A stretch of 64,000 nt of DNA, from positions 2,492-66,491 of the forward strand of contig JAUYKE010000021.1 of assembly GCA_030700125.1 (NCBI GenBank), in the 5' to 3' direction. Source of the DNA: Candidatus Colwellbacteria bacterium (GTDB taxonomy: Bacteria > Patescibacteriota > Minisyncoccia > UBA6257 > Colwellbacteraceae). The translations under genes were made by a program, and so were the position numbers. The notes below the pieces were generated by a model that saw only the letters and a program-made list of their open reading frames with translations, was not told the origin of the DNA and did not search any database. Of this stretch, positions 4,739 through 56,455 are shown piece by piece (the stretch's first letter is position 1; each line of letters starts with the position of its first letter).

Positions 4739-5944
4739 TTATTCAACCGCCACCGGAGGCTCTCCAATTGACGTGGCCTGCCCCGGCGGCGTCTTCGAGG
4801 TAAGTTTAAGAATAATCCTTTTTTCATCGGGCTTAACGGAGTCAATCAGAAACTCGTAGGATTTGCCCGGCTCGAGATTTTTCTTTAATTCCTCCACCGA
4901 GCCAAACTCGGAGACATGAATCAGTCCCATAATATCCTGGTCAAGCTTAATAAAAGCGCCGAAAGGATTAAGTTTGTGAACGATTCCATGCACCGTCACT
5001 CCTTCCTTGAAACGTTCACTCACTTTCTCCCAGGGGTTTGGTTGGAGAGTTTTGATTGAAAGGGATACTCGGCCGTCTTTGATCTCAATAATTTTGGCTT
5101 GAACCATATCGCCGATTGCCACTACTTCCTTAGGGTGGTCAATTATATTATGGCTTAGTTCAGAGATGTGAATCAGTCCTTCGATTTCGGGATTGTCGGC
5201 AAAACGGGCAAAAGCGCCGAAATTAGCCACCCCGGAGATAATCCCCGAAACAACTTGCCCTACCGAATACTGGACTAAGAGTTCCTTCACATTCTCGGTT
5301 ACCACTTCTCTCTCGGAAACTATTAATTTATTGTTTCGCGGATTGACGTTAATGATCTTTACCGTGAGTTCGGTGCCGATGAACTGATTCAGGGTCTCTA
5401 GTATCTTCTGGCGATTGCCGTCGGCGTTTTGAGGATAATGCTCGTTGGAGAGTTGAGAGGCCGGTAAAAAGGCCTGAAGACCGGCAATGGCGGAAATCAA
5501 CCCGCCGGTATTAGCCGCCGTAATCTGAACTTTAATCGGTTCTCCCTGATCCTTTAGTTCTTTGACTTCCTGCCAAGCCTTCTGTTTGCCTGCTTCGGTC
5601 AAAGATAATTCTACAAACCCCTCGTCGTTTTCCGGGGCAAGCACCTTAGCGGTTACGACCTCGCCGATCTCAAGTTTTTTTAGAATTCCTTTGGCATTTA
5701 AAAATTCCACTCCATAGACAATACCGGTTCCGATTTTGGGAATTTCAAAATAGGCCGCCCGGCCGCCCCTCTCCATTAGGGAAACATCAACAAGATCGCC
5801 TTCCTTAAGAAGAATCATGAGCGAGGGGTTCGCTTTGAGCATTTGCAGTTCTAGATGATTACCGTTCTTTTGCATTGCTTGGAGATTATAGAGAAATGGA
5901 TTTGTGTCTGCAAGTTTCAGAAGCTTGTCGAAAGCCCCAATCAT
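4739..5944 (-). CDS. S1 RNA-binding domain protein (ribosomal protein S1-like, ~4 S1 repeats)
   Basis: Repeated S1-domain signatures (G.V.G.V..F.L......GLIH.SE). Confidence 0.75.
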   Translation of the reverse strand: MIGAFDKLLKLADTNPFLYNLQAMQKNGNHLELQMLKANPSLMILLKEGDLVDVSLMERGGRAAYFEIPKIGTGIVYGVEFLNAKGILKKLEIGEVVTAKVLAPENDEGFVELSLTEAGKQKAWQEVKELKDQGEPIKVQITAANTGGLISAIAGLQAFLPASQLSNEHYPQNADGNRQKILETLNQFIGTELTVKIINVNPRNNKLIVSEREVVTENVKELLVQYSVGQVVSGIISGVANFGAFARFADNPEIEGLIHISELSHNIIDHPKEVVAIGDMVQAKIIEIKDGRVSLSIKTLQPNPWEKVSERFKEGVTVHGIVHKLNPFGAFIKLDQDIMGLIHVSEFGSVEELKKNLEPGKSYEFLIDSVKPDEKRIILKLTSKTPPGQATSIGEPPVAVE

Positions 5945-48196: not shown

Positions 48197-48433
48197 ATGT
48201 CGAGCCAGGTAAGGCCAACCATCGGAGAGGTGGTGGACGACTGTCGGATGGTGCTAACTTGCCCGGAACTTGATGAGGCTTCGATGAACGGAGTCACATC
48301 TTCCGGGCTGGATAGAAGAGACATGGTTTCCATCATTTGCAGTCACACCCATTCTCCTGATGCAGGATGCGGGTGTGCCCAGAAGATCGATCCGAACACT
48401 CTCACTTCCTATGCGGAGGAGGTAGGGCTATAG
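48197..48433 (+). CDS. GC-rich small Cys/His-rich hypothetical protein (78 aa; C17,C22,C48,H49,H51,H53,C58,C60)
   Basis: AAGGGGGCGG SD before ATG; followed by hairpin terminator ~48458-48487. Confidence 0.45.
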   Translation: MSSQVRPTIGEVVDDCRMVLTCPELDEASMNGVTSSGLDRRDMVSIICSHTHSPDAGCGCAQKIDPNTLTSYAEEVGL

Positions 48434-48593
48434 AGTAAACCGTCAACAACTAAGAAAAGGGGACAACCGAGGTATGTCCCCTTTCGAACATTTATGAGAT
48501 CTGGCGCTTGTCTGTTTGAAAATATCCCTGCCTACCGGCAGGCAGGCGAACTGAACTGGCTGGGCCCCGCGGGCGGAGTAAATGACAAAAAAA

Positions 48594-48884
48594 TCAATCA
48601 GTGATAAATAAAGAATGGAAAATGATAAAAAGAATCACACACAACCCTAAAAGAATAGATAGGAGAACTGAAATAGAGCCATCTTGATATTTCCTTTTAG
48701 CAATTATTCCGATGATAAAGGCAATGATGCTTGCGGAGAACACAATAGGCACGGTTACATCCCACCAATGATCATCAAAATTTAGTACTTTCAAAATTTG
48801 AGCAAGAAAGATTGAAGCGATAATTGCGATCAGGAAAAAGATGTGTAGTCCAACTGACCATTTACCTAATTTAGTTCTTGGCAT
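48594..48884 (-). CDS. small AT-rich membrane protein (3 TM)
   Basis: 96 aa hydrophobic. Confidence 0.45.
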   Translation of the reverse strand: MPRTKLGKWSVGLHIFFLIAIIASIFLAQILKVLNFDDHWWDVTVPIVFSASIIAFIIGIIAKRKYQDGSISVLLSILLGLCVILFIIFHSLFITD

Positions 48885-48969
48885 AAATTACCCTTATTAT
48901 ATGTGTTCCACTTCAAAGTTTTTCTTCCTAGAGCGTTCCGAGCAACGCTCGGAGTAGCTTGGCGGCAAA

Positions 48970-49278
48970 TTACTTTAACTCAACTATCAAAACATGGGTC
49001 TCGGTTTCTCCAATATTTTCACCTATATGAATTTGGGCCTCAGACCAAATAATGTCACCGGCTTTGAATTCGCGCGGTATAACTTTTCCATTGTCTAAAT
49101 GTATGTTCCGCTTGAAAGCACCTAAAGCATAGAGCACAAAAGCAGGATGTTTATGTCTATTTGTCTTTTCGCCAGGCTTATCGCGATAATCTAATACCCG
49201 TACCCGTTCATTTTCGTATATAACCTTATACTTATCAGGATCAGTTGTTACTGCATCTTGAACTGGTTGTGTATCCAT
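48970..49278 (-). CDS. cupin-domain protein
   Basis: 102 aa; …HKHPAFVLYALGAFKRNIHLDNGKVIPREFKAGDIIW… cupin-2-like beta-barrel pattern. Confidence 0.55.
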   Translation of the reverse strand: MDTQPVQDAVTTDPDKYKVIYENERVRVLDYRDKPGEKTNRHKHPAFVLYALGAFKRNIHLDNGKVIPREFKAGDIIWSEAQIHIGENIGETETHVLIVELK

Positions 49279-49456
49279 ATTTTTTATTTCCTTTTAGTTT
49301 AATTTTATATAATCGACCTTTTCGTTATACCAAATCTTCCATTGGAACGCCTAACGCTTTGGCGACTAATCTTTAAATGAATTTTTATCGAGGCAACTCG
49401 GTCGCTGACTCGCCTCGGCTGAGTCGGTCCCTCGATAAAAAATGTTGTCTGGCTAA

Positions 49457-49480
49457 ATCAAAATTCTTAAGAATTTTGAT
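49457..49480. promoter_or_regulatory. 24-bp perfect palindrome ATCAAAATTCTTAAGAATTTTGAT in the ATPase upstream region; candidate operator
   Basis: Seen directly. Confidence 0.5.
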
Positions 49481-49494
49481 CGCCCGATCGCTTA

Positions 49495-49610
49495 TAGCGA
49501 TTTAGGGCGGGACATTCGGGTTAAGTAGCCGGAGTATCCAATCAGTATAAGGGTTTTCGAGAGGTTATTCCAGAAAGCAATTTGAGGTGTCTCGGTCAAG
49601 ATTAAGCGAG
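49495..49610 (+). repeat. ~110-bp direct repeat, copy 1 (…GGGCGGGACATTCGGGTTAAGTAGCCGGAGTATCCAATCAGTATAAGGGTTTTCGAG…ATTTGAGGTGTCTCGGTCAAG…), leader of the P-type ATPase gene
   Basis: ~80-90 % identical to 53375-53485; contains a possible -10 (TATAAG). Confidence 0.6.
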
Positions 49611-52319
49611 ATCGCGGTTTCTGGTAAACTTAGCCGAATGGGAAATAATTGGTCAATGAAGCCAGTTGTAAAAATTATGGAGCAATTTGCTTCCAGCGAA
49701 CGCGGATTAGATGCCCAAGAAGCAAAGCGACGTTTACAAGAATACGGACCCAATAAATTACCAGCAGGGAAAACAAGCAGCTTAGCTCTTATATTTTTAA
49801 GACAGTTTCAAAGCCCTTTAATTTACATCCTCTTTATAGCAAGCTTGATTGTTTTTGTGATAGGAGAAGTAACTGACGGTTCTATTATTCTCTTCGTTCT
49901 TTTATTTAATGCGGTTGTGGGCACTTTTCAGGAGGGTAAAGCCCAGAATACGCTTTTAGCGTTAAAGAAACTTATCAGGGCCGACTCGGCAGTTTTACGA
50001 GGCGGAAAAGAAGTGTTATTACCGGACGAGGAAGTGGTACCAGGAGACATCCTTGTTCTTCAGGCCGGCGAGATGATCGCGGCTGACGCTAGAATAATTA
50101 CAGCTAAAAATCTTAAGGTAGACGAAGCGATATTAACTGGTGAGTCAGAACCAGTTCATAAAGTTTCCGAAATACTGGCAAGAAAAAAGAAATCGGCGCT
50201 CAATCCGAGTAATATAGTTTTTCAGGGCACTTATGTTGTCGCCGGCAATGGCAAGGCCGTAGTGGTAGCCACGGGCACCGAGACTGCGATTGGGAAAGTT
50301 GCTAAAAAAATTACGACCATTGACACCGAAATCCCTCTTAAGGTTAACATCCGCCATCTTTCTCGGCTGATTATCCTCGCGGTTGCAGGTATCGTTACTT
50401 CATTATTTTTCCTCGGTATTGCTTTGGGGAAATCGGCGAGGGAGATGTTCACTACGGCTGTATCCCTATCTGTGTCAATCATTCCTGAAGGACTGCCGAT
50501 TGTTATAACCCTGGTGTTGGCGACAGGAGTTTGGCGGATGAGCAAGAGAAATGCTTTGGTAAAGCGGCTCCAGGCAGTGGAGGCATTAGGGCAGGCGCGC
50601 ATTATCGCCATAGATAAAACCGGGACAATCACCAAAAACGAGATGGTGATTCAAAGAGTCTATATAGAGGACAAGCTTTTCGAAGTTACCGGTACTGGTT
50701 ACGACCCTAAAGGAGAAGTAAGGATTGAAGGTAACATTGTTAATCCACCTAATCATCCCGAGTTGCTCCTAGCCGGGAAAATAGCGGCTTTTTGCGCTAA
50801 CAGCCGGGTTGTAAATGATGAAAAGACTAATCAGTGGCGGATAGTTGGCGATCCGACAGAGGCAGCCATGCTTGTCTTCGCTGAAAAAATGGGATTTCAC
50901 AAAGATGATTTAGAGCGGGAGTCGCCGGAGACTGACGAAATCCCCTTTGATTATAAGCTTAAATATCACGCTACAGTCCATAAAGTCGGCAGCAAGAGAT
51001 TCCTTGCTGTAGTTGGCACACCAGAAGTCATCTTAGATCTTTCGTCAAGGATATGGCAAAAAGGCGAAGCTCATTCTCTATTTAAAGAGGAGAAAGAGGA
51101 GCTTGAAAAAACATTTATTAGGCTCTCCGAAGAAGGATTTCGGGTTTTAGCTTTTGCGATAAGTCACGATGTACCGGAGAATATCACTCCGGAGAAGATC
51201 CAGAAGCTCACTTTTGCGGGATTCTTCGGTATGAAAGATGCCCTTAGGCCGGAAGTTAAGGAGGCAGTGGAGAAAGCCAAGTCAGCCGGCATCAGGGTGA
51301 TAATGATTACCGGGGATCATAAAATTACTGCTCAGGCTATTGGGAAAGAAGCCGGCATTTACAGGGATGGCAGTGAGGTTTTGATTGGCGAGGAGGTTGA
51401 TAAGCTTTCTGACGCTGAACTTGCGTTTCGTCTTCCAAAAATCTCGATCTTTGCTCGAGTAACTCCCGATCATAAATTAAGGATTATTAATGCCTATAGA
51501 GCCCGGGGTGAGATTATTGCCATGACGGGAGACGGGGTCAATGATGCGCCGTCGTTAGTAGCCGCCGATCTTGGCATAGCGATGGGTAAAATCGGCACCG
51601 AAGTAGCCAAAGAGGCATCCGACATTGTTCTTTTGGACGATAATTTCACCAGCATTGTCTCGGCCATAGAAGAGGGGAGAAATATTTATAAGACCATTAA
51701 AAAGGTTGTCCTCTATTTGTTTTCAACGAGCGTCGGTGAAGTTCTTACGATTTCCGGAGCTCTCTTTCTCGGCTACCCCTTACCGCTGTTGGCTGCTCAA
51801 ATTATTTGGTTAAACTTGGTAACTGACGGCTTTTTGGATGTCGCTCTAGCGATGGAACCCAGGGAGAAAGGACTGCTTCAAGGTAATTTTGAACGACCCA
51901 AAAAGTATCTGATAGATCGGTTGATGGGAAAGCGGATAATTATAATGGCCATTTCGATGGCGATAGGAACCTTGTTTCTTTTCAAGGGATATTTTGAGGC
52001 TGATATTACTAAGGCCTGGACAATATCGCTTACAACTCTGGCAGTTTTTCAATGGTTTAATGCTTGGAACTGTCGCTCTGAAGAAAAATCTATTTTCCAG
52101 ACGAATCCGTTTTCAAATAGGTTCTTAGTGGGAGCAACGGTCATTGTAGTTCTCCTTCAATTGTTAGCAGTCTATAACCCTTTAATGCAGAAAATTTTGC
52201 ACACCACCTCACTTGAATTACGCGAATGGTTGCTGATTATTGCCGTAGCGGCCTCTATTATCCTTGTAGAGGAGATAAGAAAAAATTTCTATCGCAGGAG
52301 GTTGGCTTTATCCCGTTAG
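49587..52319 (+). CDS. P-type cation-transporting ATPase (type IIA/Ca2+- or Mg2+-ATPase-like); true start probably at an internal Met (~49638/49656)
   Basis: Cation_ATPase_N-like N-term (LDAQEAKRRLQEYGPNKL), TGES, DKTGTIT phosphorylation site, MTGDGVNDAPSL hinge, 10 TM. Confidence 0.9.
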   Translation: MSRSRLSEIAVSGKLSRMGNNWSMKPVVKIMEQFASSERGLDAQEAKRRLQEYGPNKLPAGKTSSLALIFLRQFQSPLIYILFIASLIVFVIGEVTDGSIILFVLLFNAVVGTFQEGKAQNTLLALKKLIRADSAVLRGGKEVLLPDEEVVPGDILVLQAGEMIAADARIITAKNLKVDEAILTGESEPVHKVSEILARKKKSALNPSNIVFQGTYVVAGNGKAVVVATGTETAIGKVAKKITTIDTEIPLKVNIRHLSRLIILAVAGIVTSLFFLGIALGKSAREMFTTAVSLSVSIIPEGLPIVITLVLATGVWRMSKRNALVKRLQAVEALGQARIIAIDKTGTITKNEMVIQRVYIEDKLFEVTGTGYDPKGEVRIEGNIVNPPNHPELLLAGKIAAFCANSRVVNDEKTNQWRIVGDPTEAAMLVFAEKMGFHKDDLERESPETDEIPFDYKLKYHATVHKVGSKRFLAVVGTPEVILDLSSRIWQKGEAHSLFKEEKEELEKTFIRLSEEGFRVLAFAISHDVPENITPEKIQKLTFAGFFGMKDALRPEVKEAVEKAKSAGIRVIMITGDHKITAQAIGKEAGIYRDGSEVLIGEEVDKLSDAELAFRLPKISIFARVTPDHKLRIINAYRARGEIIAMTGDGVNDAPSLVAADLGIAMGKIGTEVAKEASDIVLLDDNFTSIVSAIEEGRNIYKTIKKVVLYLFSTSVGEVLTISGALFLGYPLPLLAAQIIWLNLVTDGFLDVALAMEPREKGLLQGNFERPKKYLIDRLMGKRIIIMAISMAIGTLFLFKGYFEADITKAWTISLTTLAVFQWFNAWNCRSEEKSIFQTNPFSNRFLVGATVIVVLLQLLAVYNPLMQKILHTTSLELREWLLIIAVAASIILVEEIRKNFYRRRLALSR

Positions 52320-52530
52320 GTCGCTTGATAGTTCGATAGGCTCACCGCAAGTAAAAAATGTTGTCTGCGGAGGAGTAGTGGACGATGTTAGAACCTATTG
52401 GATGACCACTGCCGAGAGGTTTTTCATTCCAAGCTTAACGTTAGAGGTCGCTCGAATCAAATAATGATTTCCTACCCTTCTTTTCGTGAGCCAGAATTTT
52501 TACCCTATTATTGATTATAAAGTGAAAAAT

Positions 52531-53349
52531 TTATGTAATAAAAATTGATAACCACTCTGGATGATGGGCTTCAATAAGCGCCAGAAAGAGGATTAAATCA
52601 AGCGTCAAGTGAATCGTAATTATATAAAGGAGAGATTTGGTTTTCATAAAGATGTAACCTTGAGTAAGAGCAAAGATAAATATTAAAATAAAACCCCAGC
52701 CGGTGAAGCCAAGTTCATATAAAAATGAAGTGAACAAGACGCTTTGAATTAAGTTTGCCCAGCCAAATTTTATATGCCGGATGAGTATTCCAAGAACAGT
52801 ATTTACGAAGAAAAGTTCATCCCAAATACCCAGCGCATTAGTTCCGATAAAGAGCCTGATGATATTACTTAAGCCCGGTTCTACATTCCAATTCAGATAT
52901 GCCCCCGTATTTAGAAGGTAGAAAGGGAGTAAAAAGTAGGAAAGAATAGCTGTTATAACAATATAGAGAATTTCACTCCGAAACCAACGTCGCCCATGAT
53001 GAAACGTGTAAGGAATTAATGCCTTATCTTTATAGAATTTGCGGGCGATAGTTAACGGAATTATGAGAACTAAGACAAGGGCTAATCCCATCTCGAACAT
53101 GTGTCGATAGCTGATATCAGTGGTGATGGCAGTAATACCAAGAAGAGCTATAGCCACATAAACAAGTAAGAGATGCTTGGCGAATTGCCGCTCGGCAAAA
53201 ACTAAAGATAGTAATCCAGCGCCATATACTAGCCAGCCATAGGGCTTAACTTGCAGGGCAATAAGAATTATGCCGGTAGCCGAAAGGAGGATAAGCGAAA
53301 AGATATTAAAAATTTTAGTTCGCATTGAAGATACAAATAAGCATATCAT
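52531..53349 (-). CDS. CPBP-family (CAAX/Abi-like) intramembrane metalloprotease-like protein
   Basis: Polytopic; WDELFF (EExxxR-like), HLTLDL (HxxxD) motifs; AT-rich. Confidence 0.5.
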   Translation of the reverse strand: MICLFVSSMRTKIFNIFSLILLSATGIILIALQVKPYGWLVYGAGLLSLVFAERQFAKHLLLVYVAIALLGITAITTDISYRHMFEMGLALVLVLIIPLTIARKFYKDKALIPYTFHHGRRWFRSEILYIVITAILSYFLLPFYLLNTGAYLNWNVEPGLSNIIRLFIGTNALGIWDELFFVNTVLGILIRHIKFGWANLIQSVLFTSFLYELGFTGWGFILIFIFALTQGYIFMKTKSLLYIITIHLTLDLILFLALIEAHHPEWLSIFIT

Positions 53350-53374
53350 TTAAGGTATGCCCATTCTGCATTTG

Positions 53375-53485
53375 CGGGACGTTCGGGTTAAGTAGCCAGA
53401 GTATTCAATCAGTATAAGGGTTTCTCGGGGCTCGGGCGAGGAGCTATTTTGAGGCACGTGGGTCAGGGTTAAATGGGACAAATGG
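53375..53485 (+). repeat. ~110-bp direct repeat, copy 2, upstream of helicase gene; followed by AAATGGGACA tandem and GGGACAC…GTGTCCC hairpin
   Basis: Seen directly. Confidence 0.6.
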
Positions 53486-53629
53486 GACACGAAAACAGGG
53501 TTTTTGGGAGTGTCCCATTTTGCAACCTGAGTAGTTGCCAGGCGGTTGACTAATGGCATTAAATATGCCATTCTTTGGTGTCCTTTAATAGCGTATTCTC
53601 TCCACCGAAAGCGAAAGGAGGTGGTCGAC

Positions 53630-56017
53630 ATGATCCCAATGCTACACCAGCAGGACTGCCTGGACCGCCTCCAGGCGGTTCGTAAGCAAGGCCATGAACG
53701 TGCCCTCATCGTGGTTGCAACTGGCCTTGGTAAGACTGTCATTTCGGCTCTCGACATAAAGCAGTTTCGGAAGCTGAAGCGTGGTGGTCGAGTGCTCTAC
53801 CTCTGTCACCAGAAGGATATCCTCCGGCAGGCTCGGAGGACCTTCGAGCTCGTGCTCGGAGAGGAGGCGACCTACGGGTATTTCCACGGCATGGAAAAGC
53901 ATTTCCACGACGTGGATTGTCTCTTTGCCTCGTTCCAAAGCATGCGCGAGTGGCGTGAGGCTTTCCTTCCGGATGAGTTCGACTACATCGTGATTGATGA
54001 GAGTCATCATGGTCCGGCGCCGACTTACCGCCCCACGATCGAGTACTTTGAACCCAAGTTCTTGCTTGGAATCACCGCTACTCCGGATCGGACCGATCTC
54101 CAGGATATTCGGGAGATCTACGGACGGGAGGTCTACTCGCTTCCCATCGAGGAGGCTCTAGCCAAGGGGCTTCTCACAAGGGTGGACTATCGACTCATCA
54201 CAGATGAACTCGTCGATCTCAAGGTACTCGAGACGCCAGTTGGTAAGCTCAGCATAACCGAGCTCAACAAGAGGCTCTTCGTACCGAAGCGAGACGAGGA
54301 AATCGCACAGATCATCCAGAAGCGCATCAAGAAGATCAAGGACCCTCGGGTTATGATTTTCTGTCCTTCAGTGGACTACTGTATTCGACTCTCGGCGCTC
54401 TTGCCAGAAGCGATACCCATCCATTACCGGCTTTCCGGGAAAGACCAGGAAATTCGGCTTGAGTTATTCCGGCAGGGCCGGGTCAGGTCAGTCCTCACGG
54501 TCGATAAGTTCAACGAAGGGATTGATATCCCAGAAGCGAACGTAATTGTCTTCCTCCGCTCGACTGCTTCTCGGATGCTCTTCTTCCAGCAGCTTGGGAG
54601 GGGACTCCGGAAAGTTGAGGGGAAGAAGAAGGTTCTCGTGCTCGACTTCGTGGGTAACTGCGAGCGGCTCGAGCTGGTCCACTATCTGTGGTCTGAGGTG
54701 ATGACGTATCACTCTCATAAGATCTCGGGTAATGGACCGGCTCCAATCGAGATTGATGTCGGAAGCCTCAAATTCTCCGAGGTGACCAAGAACGTTCTGG
54801 ACGTCATCATGGCGGTTCGGGGCGGTTACACTAAGGAGATTTTGATCAAGCAGCTCAGGCAACTTGCCGAGCGGATCGGACGAATCCCTAGAAGAGTCGA
54901 CGTAGACAAGGCATCTCATGAAGGTCGATGCGCACACAGCGTGACTTTCACAAGGGTCTTTGGATCATTCCCTAAAGCTCTGCTGGCAGCGGGGTTTGAG
55001 CCGAACTATATTCGCTCTCTCCTCCCAAGTAAAGAGGAAATGATTCGTCTCCTCCGGGAACTCGGAGATAAACTGAAAAGAGTTCCCAGTCGGGAAGACA
55101 TTCGGCAGGCAAACAAGGAAGGGTTCTGCCCAAGCTGCTGGTACTACGAGCAACAGTTTGGATCACTTCCAGAAGCTCTCACACGTGCCGGCTTTAATCC
55201 TCGGAGATCAATCCGGCACACTCCGGAAGAGCTCATCGAAAGGCTCCAGTGGCTCACCAGAGAGCTAGGTCATCAGCCTTCGCATAGAGAGTTAAGGAAA
55301 GTAAGTAAGGAGATCAATGGTTTCCCGACCATTCTTCCTTTCCTGCGTGCTTTTGGCAATCTTGATGAGGCATTCGAAGCAGCAGGCCTCAGTAGAAGGC
55401 GAGGTATCGAGAAATATAAATCCTCGTACACGGAAGATGAGATTGTCTCTTACCTTCAGAGTCTTGCCAAGCAACTTGGTAAGACACCTAGCGCAGCTGA
55501 CGTAGGCCAAGCAAGTGCCGGCGGCAAGGGGCCAGGATCCTCCGCTATCGCCCGACGCTTTGGCAGTTTCAATGCAGCGCTTGAAGCAGCTGGATTACTA
55601 CCATTAAAGAGAAACTACACCGACGAAGAGCTTATTGATCTGCTCCGGCAGTGTGCTGAGGAGATCGGTAAAGTTCCCGGAAAGCAAGACCTCCTACACC
55701 ACGGCTGGCCAAGCCCTAACACATACCGACAACACTTCGGCTCGTATGCCATCGCGCTTGAGAGAGCTGGGCTTACGCCGACTGCTCGAAGCATCGCAAG
55801 AAGCATCTATAGCTTCGAGGATATAGTCAGGGCTGTCCGAAAGGTAGCGGAAAACCTAGGCCGAGTTCCTACTCTAGGTGAGTACGAATCACTCCGTGCC
55901 GTTGGCGAACCTACTCGCTACACGATTAGTAGGCGACTAGGCGATTGGAAGTCTGTACTAAAAGCCGCTGATCTTACAGGGGAAAACGAATCCCTGAACA
56001 CCCGGTTGGAGGGATAA
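53630..56017 (+). CDS. SF2 (ResIII/DEAH-like) helicase fused to six C-terminal homing-endonuclease-associated (HEAR-type) repeats; GC-rich
   Basis: Walker A ATGLGKT, Walker B DESHH, motif III GITATP, helicase-C motifs; C-terminal six ~50-aa repeats ending …FGS(F/W/L)xxALExAGL; AAGGAGG SD before ATG at 53630. Confidence 0.8.
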   Translation: MIPMLHQQDCLDRLQAVRKQGHERALIVVATGLGKTVISALDIKQFRKLKRGGRVLYLCHQKDILRQARRTFELVLGEEATYGYFHGMEKHFHDVDCLFASFQSMREWREAFLPDEFDYIVIDESHHGPAPTYRPTIEYFEPKFLLGITATPDRTDLQDIREIYGREVYSLPIEEALAKGLLTRVDYRLITDELVDLKVLETPVGKLSITELNKRLFVPKRDEEIAQIIQKRIKKIKDPRVMIFCPSVDYCIRLSALLPEAIPIHYRLSGKDQEIRLELFRQGRVRSVLTVDKFNEGIDIPEANVIVFLRSTASRMLFFQQLGRGLRKVEGKKKVLVLDFVGNCERLELVHYLWSEVMTYHSHKISGNGPAPIEIDVGSLKFSEVTKNVLDVIMAVRGGYTKEILIKQLRQLAERIGRIPRRVDVDKASHEGRCAHSVTFTRVFGSFPKALLAAGFEPNYIRSLLPSKEEMIRLLRELGDKLKRVPSREDIRQANKEGFCPSCWYYEQQFGSLPEALTRAGFNPRRSIRHTPEELIERLQWLTRELGHQPSHRELRKVSKEINGFPTILPFLRAFGNLDEAFEAAGLSRRRGIEKYKSSYTEDEIVSYLQSLAKQLGKTPSAADVGQASAGGKGPGSSAIARRFGSFNAALEAAGLLPLKRNYTDEELIDLLRQCAEEIGKVPGKQDLLHHGWPSPNTYRQHFGSYAIALERAGLTPTARSIARSIYSFEDIVRAVRKVAENLGRVPTLGEYESLRAVGEPTRYTISRRLGDWKSVLKAADLTGENESLNTRLEG

Positions 56018-56325: not shown

Positions 56326-56369
56326 AAGTACAAAATAAATACATCGCAAGGATGTACTTATTTTGTACG

Positions 56370-56455
56370 CGGAAGGGGTGGGATTCGAACCCACGAGGGG
56401 GACAAGCCCCCACGGGTTAGCAACCCGTCGCTTTGGACCGCTCAGCCACCCTTCC
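56370..56455 (-). tRNA. tRNA-Ser (anticodon GCT), long variable arm
   Basis: GGAAGGG-TG-GCTGAGCGGTCCAAAGC-G-ACGGG-TTGCTAA-CCCGT-variable arm-GTGGGTTCGAATCCCAC-CCCTTCC-G. Confidence 0.85.

Follow-up and report, generated by a model that had tools for sequence, protein, structure and literature searches.

We have analysed a 64-kb stretch of DNA (the window), from a Candidatus Colwellbacteria MAG, that carries a P-type ATPase, an Rce1/CPBP-like protease, a ResIII helicase with six HNH_repeat (HEAR) units and a tRNA-Ser gene; all four identities, proposed in an earlier note on this DNA, were confirmed. The ATPase most likely starts at the ATG at 49638 (MGNNWSMK), as in its orthologs, and the CPBP protease most likely at 53325. 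The features considered below are:

48594..49278, - strand: two small AT-rich ORFs without a Pfam match (102 and 96 aa), on the far side of c1 and the trailer
49387..49436, no strand: long inverted repeat (ATCGAGG ... CCCTCGAT) between runs of T and A, read from the sequence
49418..49451, + strand: tRNA-Ser 3' trailer in opposite-strand reading, including the first 16-mer (49436-49451)
49452..49507, + strand: 56-nt insertion between trailer and c1, inverted ends matching at 7/8 positions (GCTAAATC ... GATTTAGG)
49507..49598, + strand: element copy c1, 92-nt core, 93.5 bits with covariance model (CM) R1, 39 nt upstream of the ATPase start
49638..52319, + strand: P-type (Ca/Mg-type) cation ATPase (Pfam), module between c1 and c3
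52352..52367, + strand: second 16-mer copy (tRNA-Ser trailer), following the ATPase stop and preceding c3
52368..52465, + strand: decayed copy c3, a tRNA-Ser fragment plus a part resembling the 3' half of c1
52531..53325, - strand: CPBP/Rce1-like intramembrane protease (Pfam), module between c3 and c2
53374..53465, + strand: element copy c2, 92-nt core, 88.6 bits (CM R1), between the divergent CPBP and helicase genes
53480..53521, no strand: hairpin AAAUGGGACAC ... GUGUCCCAUUU with A and U runs on its flanks, 15 nt beyond c2
53630..56017, + strand: ResIII/DEAD helicase with six HEAR units (Pfam), module between c2 and tRNA-Ser
56369..56455, - strand: tRNA-Ser(GCU), the array anchor (ARAGORN and Rfam)

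The tRNA-Ser gene is oriented as the reverse strand of c1, c2 and c3, all of which lie on its 3' side. Read along the minus strand, tRNA-Ser is followed by the helicase (opposite strand), c2, CPBP, c3 with trailer, the ATPase (opposite strand) and c1, and then by the 56-nt insertion, the original tRNA-Ser trailer with its hairpin and the small ORFs. The helicase ATG (53630) is 165 nt from c2, with an 11-bp-stem hairpin in between (-20.7 kcal/mol; z = -2.3 on the + strand and -3.4 on the - strand) that is terminator-like on both strands. The inverted repeat at 49387..49436, beyond the trailer, is terminator-like in both directions, and the related locus L003 has an analogous hairpin ahead of its trailer. 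In the ATPase 5' leader, c1 and its orthologs are followed by a small hairpin (UCUCG...CGAGA).

Two intact copies and a decayed third

The earlier note had described a repeat of ~110 bp with 80-90% identity. The direct repeat exists (~49497-49615 and 53365-53480, both on the + strand) but is less uniform than claimed, with 68 of the 92 core positions identical between c1 and c2 (74%). Identity is split unevenly, 47/50 in the 5' part, a gapless stretch of 94% identity in the pairwise alignment, and 21/42 in the 3' part. These were the only two matches in the window, with none in 100 shuffles. The most conserved block contains the hexamers TATAAG (+ strand) and TATACT (- strand).

Comparison with related loci revealed that c1 is chimeric. 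Over its 5' 50 nt it matches c2 at 94% identity, and in L002 and L003 the ATPase-linked copies are the orthologs of its 3' part (90.6% identity to the downstream L003 copy); homology between the window and L002 begins in mid-element, at 49539. Copy c2 is 88% identical to its ortholog L024:551-642, with 86% in the 5' half, lower than the 94% between the 5' halves of c1 and c2.

The third copy, c3 (~52368-52465), had been overlooked and was not detected by the covariance model. It lies immediately past the second of two copies of the 16-mer TAAAAAATGTTGTCTG (49436-49451 and 52352-52367), previously reported as a 15-mer. Positions 52368-52397 are the reverse complement of a tRNA-Ser fragment from the T-loop to the 3' end, and 52413-52454 resemble the 3' half of c1 (p about 0.04). 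The reverse strand of c3 matched the L003 tRNA-Ser 3' end plus trailer with z = 12.8 and an identical run of 21/21, so that the tRNA-Ser 3' end and trailer are duplicated at c3. The position of c3 corresponds to that of the intact copies L003:3870-3961 and L024:1505-1596. The 16-mer itself is the native tRNA-Ser 3' trailer, as seen in L003, where positions 4795-4821 (TCGGTCCTCGATAGAAAATGTTGTCTG) directly adjoin the tRNA-Ser 3' end. The 24-bp perfect palindrome already noticed at 49457-49480 is part of the separate 56-nt insertion, which is 54/56 identical to L002:3345-3400, there in the copy downstream of the ATPase.

A family of elements beside tRNA-Ser

Pattern scans and CM R1 yielded 14 copies at 10 loci in Parcubacteria-type (CPR) genomes and metagenomes, scoring 51-94 bits and with a constant core length of 91-93 nt. 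The loci share sequence blocks and this strict length despite pairwise identities of only 50-75%. The 92-nt element is non-coding, previously undescribed and specific to one group among the CPR bacteria of Parcubacteria type. An Rfam search gave no match at E<=10, and phage, plasmid and viral collections yielded no copies. Folding energies were no better than those of shuffles (mean z about 0, both strands), and the element has no canonical attC boxes at its ends, whole-site hairpin, closing stem, terminal inverted repeats or target-site duplication. Loci carry 1-3 copies.

A tRNA-Ser gene was present 0.04-3 kb from the element and co-oriented with its reverse strand in 6/6 loci with enough context: the window (GCU), L003, L013 (GGA), L017 (UGA), L018 (CGA) and L007 (CGA, 37 nt away). 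It was the sole tRNA in L013, L017 and L018. The element lay on its 3' side in five of the six, as in the window, L003, L013, L017 and L018, the exception being L007, where it is 5' of the tRNA gene. Intact elements do not reproduce the 3' end of the neighbouring tRNA (no nhmmer match; global-alignment z about 0).

The copies separate single genes, namely ATPase, CPBP protease, NUDIX, HNH, GrpB and methyltransferase. In nine cases (GrpB, HNH, methyltransferase, a 155-aa ORF, NUDIX, a 95-aa ORF, CPBP twice and a 171-aa ORF) a reverse-strand ORF ended between 22 nt inside the element and 66 nt before it, the next reverse-strand ORF starting 2-62 nt past it. NUDIX (L017) and CPBP (L024) each lie between two direct copies. 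The L024 CPBP ortholog, from another sample, has both flanking copies intact within a different gene neighbourhood; the part in common with the window is only the element, CPBP and 38 nt (75% nt identity), and synteny breaks sharply, exactly at the GGTCA edge of c2 (53467). The window, L002 and L003 have the ATPase and its flanking copies in common within a syntenic backbone (tRNA-Gly/Arg ... tRNA-Ser), and their other cargo differs.

The earlier note had named relatives with the ATPase but without the repeat as evidence against its proposal. Such relatives exist (L004, L021, L022 and L023, with ATPases at about 70-73% identity), and hence ATPase genes do not generally have the element as their leader; in orthologs of 95% and 85% identity the flanking copies are retained. 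Of the two options then offered, an acquired cassette 3' of tRNA-Ser came closer to the evidence: the tRNA-Ser link held at every locus with context. A single 3.9-kb cassette with two LTR-like ends did not hold, since c1, the decayed c3 and c2 instead delimit single-gene modules (ATPase, CPBP and helicase).

Possible nature of the element

Our preferred explanation, held tentatively, is that gene modules are stacked next to tRNA-Ser and that the elements are their att- or attC-like recombination joints, with gene conversion homogenising the copies. We favour it over a shared regulatory leader because the element always lies near tRNA-Ser and separates single accessory genes.

A small structured RNA on the + strand, while rather unlikely, is a serious rival. 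It would either stand alone as an sRNA of ~100-160 nt or act in cis as a leader or attenuator (e.g., of the ATPase and helicase), by means of one hairpin (P2) whose 3' arm would alternatively pair with the 3'-terminal GUGGGUCA. P2 is kept with different sequences in the subtypes, has G-U pairs possible only on the + strand and pairs in 77% of cells vs. 33-50% in slid controls, with a covariation score reached by 17/500 shuffles; the alternative helix was no better than shuffles (132/500) and the closing stem is unsupported. Conservation of blocks and length across diverged loci would suit an RNA, as would the extra hairpins inserted in L002 and L003 with the core undisturbed, whereas the Rfam and folding results would not. 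Also in its favour, several copies have, by inspection, AT-rich -10-like hexamers 5-8 nt before GCGG, and c2 and L011 combine a divergent gene upstream with a hairpin plus U-run 15-60 nt downstream (+ strand); copy b of L017, however, lies just 9 and 16 nt from the ORFs on either side, too close for a promoter or terminator of its own. Like metal-ion riboswitch leaders (M-box, yybP-ykoY), c1 and its orthologs occupy a P-type ATPase 5' leader with a small hairpin next; unlike them, the element has no Rfam match, is missing from ATPase orthologs of ~70% identity and mostly does not lie in leaders. Such inconsistent gene context, and a tRNA-Ser linkage left unexplained, argue against an RNA.

It is improbable that the element derives from, or is a relic of, tRNA-Ser on the reverse strand (a pseudo-tRNA or tRNA-like module) travelling with or preceding each downstream gene, possibly as a processing or expression signal in transcripts starting at tRNA-Ser. 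Neither ARAGORN nor the Rfam tRNA model recognised it, and by inspection the acceptor stem cannot form and the loop is not a T-loop. Its 92 nt and its orientation do match tRNA-Ser (85-93 nt), and its place before CPBP is taken in L031 by a genuine tRNA-Ser(CGA), with the CPBP homolog 46 nt after it. The ending ...CCGCCA of some copies (L017a, L018) coincides with a local tRNA-Ser that has CCA encoded as well, and there are collinear local matches, including CTCGAAA..TTATACTG. The first 30 nt weakly resemble reverse-complemented tRNA 3' ends, the four best of 33 tRNAs all being Ser, against which stand the negative nhmmer and global alignments and substitutions that favour pairing on the opposite (+) strand.

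A selfish miniature repeat without host function, spreading in intergenic DNA of variable regions, is more doubtful still. As in REP/BIME and MITE repeats, the copies are short, multiple, intergenic and partly hairpin-forming, they lie near accessory and homing-endonuclease-type genes (HNH, GIY-YIG, HEAR), and a true miniature insertion with inverted ends adjoins c1. The 92-nt element differs in its few copies, lack of terminal inverted repeats and target-site duplications, strict length and blocks across diverged loci, fixed linkage and orientation to tRNA-Ser, and absence from the mobile-element collections.

Hardly any credence can be given to the other option of the earlier note, a duplicated sigma-70-type promoter or shared 5'-UTR co-regulating ATPase and helicase. 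Both copies do lie upstream of + strand genes and contain the two hexamers, but there is no conserved -35 at the right distance (the variable P3 region sits there), and between c2 and the helicase stands a terminator-like hairpin. The majority of the family does not precede a co-directional gene (the next gene is convergent after 7/14). The absent Rfam match, leaderless ATPase orthologs and folding z about 0 weigh against a regulatory RNA as well.

Returning to recombination joints, we counted in their favour the family itself with its tRNA-Ser linkage and cassette-like packing, the signs of module mobility or shuffling (the element and CPBP in a different neighbourhood in L024, differing cargo on the backbone of the window, L002 and L003, and the CPBP homolog after tRNA-Ser(CGA) in L031), the tRNA-Ser 3' end and trailer at c3, which may represent an att-type scar, and the chimeric c1 with the mid-element start of L002 homology, suggestive of recombination within the element. 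Counted against them were the absence of any tyrosine or serine recombinase among ~35 larger window ORFs and ~25 ORFs of related loci, an intact element that is no tRNA 3'-end copy, the missing attC boxes, whole-site hairpin and closing stem, the short arrays and the placement in L007. In addition, an RNA would account at least equally well for the long conserved, apparently unpaired blocks and for the + strand substitutions compatible with G-U pairing, and mosaics would also be expected if dispersed copies of any repeat underwent homologous recombination.

Two known systems are comparable. Integron gene-cassette arrays carry species-specific attC repeats, e.g., the Vibrio cholerae VCR array, and integrase-less attC clusters are termed CALIN. 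Similarities are direct repeats of about 60-140 nt between single, mostly co-oriented accessory ORFs, beginning just past the stop codon, resemblance among repeats of one lineage, cassette-type cargo (NUDIX, GrpB, methyltransferase, with glyoxalase nearby) and a better-pairing strand that is the complement of the ORF strand. The element differs in having no RYYYAAC/GTTRRRY boxes at its two ends, no whole-site imperfect palindrome and long unpaired blocks conserved between genomes; no IntI or attI was found here, the anchor is a tRNA-Ser gene, arrays are short and some modules are large and inverted (ATPase, helicase). Genomic islands at tRNA gene 3' ends show tandem accretion, and remnants that lack an integrase but have att repeats at their flanks are known as CIME-type elements. 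As in these, modules lie co-oriented on the 3' side of a tRNA gene, its 3' end and trailer are duplicated at an internal joint (c3), and cargo varies among close relatives within a conserved backbone. The intact repeat, unlike theirs, is not a tRNA 3'-end copy, the modules are single genes without integrase, and the same element lies beside four different tRNA-Ser isoacceptors.

That the joints arise through site-specific and not through homologous recombination of the repeats is our inference, as would be any choice of enzyme or crossover position. Each module would consist of one gene plus one element and would be inserted, exchanged or lost through recombination at or within the element. 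The primary insertion point would be the 3' end of tRNA-Ser and its trailer, and gene conversion would homogenise the copies inside one genome.

A repeated 92-nt element and its family

A repeat search of the window revealed a gapless 50-nt core, present at 49507-49556 and 53374-53423 with 94% identity, and the alignment of both copies showed that the shared blocks run on to ...GGTCA. A 42-nt degenerate pattern had two matches in the window, one at each copy, and none in 100 shuffles. Over the whole 92-nt cores, 68 positions are identical (74%), with agreement at 47 of 50 positions in the 5' part and at 21 of 42 in the 3' part. The repeat described in the earlier note is hence real, and the 80-90% identity that it gave over about 110 bp is too generous for the 3' half, where only 21 of 42 positions agree. 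A short repeat claimed on both sides of the ATPase gene corresponds to a 16-mer (49436-49451 and 52352-52367), a 24-bp perfect palindrome is present at 49457-49480, and the P-type ATPase, CPBP protease, HEAR helicase and tRNA-Ser had been called correctly. The features are as follows.

49507-49598, + strand: conserved core of c1, the copy before the ATPase gene (92 nt, covariance-model alignment)
53374-53465, + strand: conserved core of c2, the copy between the CPBP and helicase genes (92 nt, covariance-model alignment)
49638, + strand: most likely start (ATG) of the P-type ATPase, from ortholog comparison
53325, - strand: most likely start of the Rce1/CPBP-like protease
53630-56017, + strand: ResIII helicase with six HEAR repeats
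56369-56455, - strand: tRNA-Ser(GCU)

A record from a Candidatus Colwellbacteria MAG has exactly the CPBP protein of the window, and the relatives of the ATPase are all Parcubacteria/Paceibacterota. The G+C content is 0.36-0.47 over the small ORFs, ATPase and CPBP (window 48400-53400) and 0.51-0.56 in the flanking 47.8-48.6 kb and the helicase, so the modules, that is, the single genes between element copies, differ in composition. The window carries 15 tRNA genes per 64 kb, several of them tightly paired, and a short IF-2 (494 aa) followed by rbfA, which is compatible with a reduced CPR genome. Immediately 3' of c2 there is a tandem duplication, AAATGGGAC AAATGGGAC (53470-53495); GGGAC also starts the element core (GCGGGAC), and GTGTCCC ends the hairpin next after c2.

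A gapped search pattern was designed from the first four sequences. Its one true match in species-representative genomes was a locus of Candidatus Wolfebacteria GW2011_GWB1_47_1 (L007), and five distinct true matches came from metagenome contigs (L011, L013, L017, L018 and L020). The other pattern matches had no likeness outside the pattern itself. Viral contigs gave no true match to this pattern, and searches of phages, plasmids and viral contigs found no relatives of the element. A covariance model (R1), built on 11 sequences, added a second copy in L003 (directly 3' of the ATPase stop), a second copy in L017 and two copies in L024. The family thus totals 14 copies at 10 loci, scoring 51-94 bits, with cores of 91-93 nt; the exception in length is the L002 copy, into which a 21-nt GC hairpin is inserted. 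The common blocks are GCGG.., (Y)GGGTTAAGT, CA(A/G)NCAGTATAAGG(G/A)TTT, ATTTGAGGC and (G/C)NNGGTCA, and two subtypes are set apart by the first hairpin and by having GUGGGUCA or CUCGGUCA. A coding function was rejected, as most members have stops in every frame. Rfam 15 at the gathering threshold matched only tRNAs in the whole window and neither copy, and neither was matched at E<=10 over 49300-53700. The searchable literature (CPR riboswitches, integrons, motif strings) yielded nothing relevant. The element was therefore found described neither in Rfam nor in that literature.

Linkage to tRNA-Ser and single-gene modules

ARAGORN located a tRNA-Ser near the element in all six loci with enough flank, always in R orientation, that is, on the reverse strand of the element. 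The element lies on the 3' side of the tRNA gene in five of these loci and on its 5' side in L007.

tRNA-Ser genes linked to the element
Window: tRNA-Ser(GCU), 2.9 kb from c2
L007: tRNA-Ser(CGA), 37 nt from the element
L017: tRNA-Ser(UGA), then HNH, copy b, NUDIX, copy a
L018: tRNA-Ser(CGA), then a 95-aa ORF, the element
L013: tRNA-Ser(GGA), then a methyltransferase, the element
L003: tRNA-Ser, partial at the contig end, then two ORFs, the copy downstream of the ATPase

In L013, L017 and L018 this is the sole tRNA of the locus. Since Ser accounts for roughly one in ten tRNAs, the linkage cannot be chance.

The element is tightly packed between genes. Nine R-oriented ORFs have their ends between 22 nt within it and 66 nt ahead of it, and the next R-oriented ORF begins 2-62 nt past it. 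Two direct copies bracket a NUDIX gene in L017, where the spacers on the sides of copy b are only 9 and 16 nt, and a CPBP gene in L024. The part that L024 shares with the window consists of the element, CPBP and 38 nt (549-1477 in L024, 53467-52494 in the window; 75% nucleotide identity), with the CPBPs 86% identical. This homology ends precisely at the GGTCA edge of c2, and different genes lie on either side. The ATPase and its flanking copies are common to the window, L002 and L003, which otherwise carry different cargo; L003 also has the window backbone of tRNA-Gly, tRNA-Arg ... tRNA-Ser. CPBP homologs of 58-70% identity occur in many CPR classes (Komeilibacteria, Pacebacteria, Wildermuthbacteria, Kerfeldbacteria), with one labelled Desulfosarcina, and this distribution suggests that the single CPBP gene has spread horizontally.

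The neighborhoods hold further genes of note. Homing-endonuclease-type genes stand beside tRNA-Ser in three independent loci, namely an HNH gene (L017:1805-2431), a GIY-YIG gene (L018:5449-5802) and the helicase with six HEAR repeats (window 53630-56017), and in these bacteria tRNA-Ser may serve such genes as a target or landing pad. The Wolfebacteria locus has, about 1.3 kb away from the element, an ORF (L015:93-503) resembling bAvd, which is an accessory protein in diversity-generating retroelements. At L031, from another CPR lineage, genuine tRNAs alternate with single ORFs in a layout like that of the element arrays (676-2933: Ser(UGA), Ser(GCU), ORF, Arg(GCG), ORF, Ser(CGA), CPBP homolog). 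There the CPBP homolog (69% identity) follows the genuine tRNA-Ser(CGA) by 46 nt and no element is present; a duplicate of the tRNA-Ser 3' end after this gene, suspected by eye, found no support (p = 0.85).

Traces of tRNA-Ser itself were found at the window copies. In L003, TCGGTCCTCGATAGAAAATGTTGTCTG adjoins the 3' end of the real tRNA-Ser. The same trailer follows c1 in the window after a 56-nt insertion, and the 16-mer trailer core follows c3, the decayed copy after the ATPase gene; judged by its sequence, the 16-mer is the tRNA-Ser trailer. On the R strand, the part of c3 next to the second 16-mer (52368-52397) is a tRNA-end scar, a decayed tRNA-Ser from T-loop to 3' end joined to the trailer, and compared with the tRNA-Ser end of L003 it gave z = 12.8 and a run of 21/21 identical positions. 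The remaining half of c3 has a weak likeness to the 3' half of c1 (p ~0.04). The covariance model did not detect c3, which occupies the position of the intact copies in L003 and L024.

The copies are also mosaic. The insertion next to c1 is the following feature.

49452-49507: 56-nt insertion holding the 24-bp palindrome, with inverted ends matching at 7/8 positions (GCTAAATC ... GATTTAGG)

It directly abuts the trailer (..TGTCTG) on one side and the element (GCGG..) on the other, and is 54/56 identical to L002:3345-3400, where it belongs to the copy downstream of the ATPase. From this shift in position, it is either a tiny site-specific mobile insertion or the outcome of exchange between copies. 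Homology between the window and L002 starts in the middle of c1, at 49539. Over its 3' part, c1 shares 90.6% identity with the L003 copy that follows the ATPase. In their 5' halves c1 and c2 agree at 94%, compared with 86% between c2 and its L024 ortholog, which points to gene conversion within the genome.

RNA and tRNA readings of the element

We considered it credible that the element encodes a small RNA on the + strand. Its blocks are conserved, hairpin insertions are tolerated, and c2 and L011, both with a divergent gene upstream, are soon followed by a hairpin with a U-run. The predicted hairpin P2 has the same position in all members and differs in sequence between subtypes; several of its changes allow G-U pairs on the + strand only. 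With 14 sequences only, P2 is paired in 77% of cells (33-50% with a slid partner), three pairs show double changes, and its covariation score was reached by 17/500 shuffles. The score of the whole structure model was likewise reached by 17/500 shuffles. A further, variable hairpin (P3) is plausible. An equally good potential partner for the 3' arm of P2 is the 3'-terminal GUGGGU (79% paired); this alternative helix did not beat shuffles (132/500), and it survives in copy 1 of L024, where the 5' arm of P2 is mutated. For a candidate pseudoknot joining the P2 loop UUAAGU to AUUUGA, pairing is 71%, with conservation on both sides and a single one-sided change. Thermodynamically the fold is not strong: the folding energy of 12 cores against dinucleotide shuffles had a mean z of ~0 on both strands. 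A closing stem (P1) between the flanks, seen by eye, was discarded because its duplex energies were no better than those of shuffles, as was a hammerhead or other ribozyme, since the GAUGAG seen by eye in L002 is not family-wide and had no Rfam match. Overall, the structural evidence modestly keeps the RNA reading alive but does not establish an RNA, and such an RNA would leave the tRNA-Ser linkage and the tight squeeze between ORFs unexplained.

P2 (GGGUUAAGU(N)CCC; window 49515-49533 and other copies) is nearly identical to what we take to be helix 37 of E. coli 16S rRNA (GGGUUAAGUCCC), and the conserved AUAAGGGUU is complementary to what is presumably a nearby 16S stretch (AACCCUUAU). Both resemblances may be chance likeness.

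The length, orientation, position and ...CCGCCA ends of the element also suggest a tRNA-like module, derived from tRNA-Ser and read on the R strand. The tRNA finders gave it no support: neither ARAGORN nor the Rfam tRNA model at E<=10 detected a cloverleaf at any copy. A weak likeness to the reverse complement of tRNA-Ser 3' ends is confined to the first 30 nt, for which the four best-matching among 33 tRNAs were all Ser. Homology of the intact element to tRNA-Ser over its whole length found no support, with no nhmmer match and z ~0 in global alignments.

The earlier note had offered a regulatory leader or 5'-UTR shared by unrelated genes, and the gene contexts argue against it. A downstream co-directional gene exists only for c1, L002 and the upstream L003 copy (all ATPase), c2 (helicase) and L007 (a 194-aa ORF, 175 nt from the element), and a convergent gene faces 7 of the 14 copies. 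A related leader precedes the ATPase orthologs of L002 (95% protein identity) and L003 (85%), and none was detectable by the model at four orthologs of ~70-73% identity (L004, L021, L022 and L023). Because these four lack the element, an ATPase riboswitch was rejected as a general reading; the Rfam scan proposed for the ATPase leader (E<=10) matched neither copy. A promoter shared by the genes behind the copies is unlikely in the same contexts.

Relation to known systems and meaning

On the most economical reading, single-gene modules are stacked next to tRNA-Ser and the elements are their recombination joints. The option of an acquired cassette beside tRNA-Ser was thus the better of the two in the earlier note, and its single 3.9-kb cassette has to be redrawn, with three copies, single-gene modules and a tRNA-Ser link that extends across the family. 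Functionally, the joints would be comparable to integron attC sites or to the att repeats of tRNA-gene islands, and we infer that a site-specific enzyme makes them; the tRNA-Ser linkage, the packing, the tRNA-end scar, the synteny breaks at module level and the mosaic copies are directly observed.

As in an integron attC array, direct repeats part single ORFs and begin just after a stop codon (nine cases). Unlike attC, the element has neither R''/R' end boxes (RYYYAAC ... GTTRRRY) nor a whole-site imperfect hairpin, and a canonical attC was rejected on these grounds. Flank-to-flank duplexes were no better than shuffles, the sole GTTRRRY-like box (GTTAAGT) lies inside the element, within the P2 loop, and inspection revealed a 7-bp flanking inverted repeat in c2 only. 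No IntI, attI or Phage_integrase/recombinase domain was found in the scanned ORFs of the window and loci. As in tRNA-targeting islands, the array is 3' of the tRNA gene and co-oriented with it in 5/6 loci. The repeat of such islands is a copy of the tRNA 3' end, which the decayed c3 fits (z = 12.8), whereas the intact element is no detectable copy and gives a weak signal in its first 30 nt; islands also carry an internal integrase, whereas the modules here are single non-recombinase genes. Since the element fails the defining tests of both systems, it is assigned to neither, although it works like both.

A selfish MITE is unlikely: GCGGGAC... and ...GGGTCA, the two ends, do not form an inverted repeat, terminal inverted repeats and a target-site duplication are absent, and the inverted ends (7/8) belong instead to the neighboring 56-nt insertion. 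By inspection, a TR/VR pair of a diversity-generating retroelement was rejected, as the differences are not adenine-specific, the copies are non-coding and no reverse transcriptase lies nearby.

Building on the reading as recombination joints, we tentatively propose, as a rather improbable model, a tRNA-Ser-anchored, integron-like cassette system in CPR/Patescibacteria, with an attC-like 92-nt site and an unlinked recombinase. The element would then be a new cassette recombination site that functions like attC but is built differently, the primary integration site and perhaps also the promoter would be the 3' end of tRNA-Ser, and the putative unlinked recombinase would carry single-gene modules between genomes.

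CPR bacteria have tiny genomes and, to our knowledge, few recognized mobile elements or regulatory RNAs. If the element is an RNA, it would be among the first lineage-specific structured RNAs described for CPR. A conserved element that is tied to tRNA-Ser and divides accessory genes into exchangeable single-gene units would show how these bacteria gain and shuffle accessory functions such as ion pumps, membrane proteases and nucleases, and the covariance model would then offer a searchable marker for CPR variable regions.
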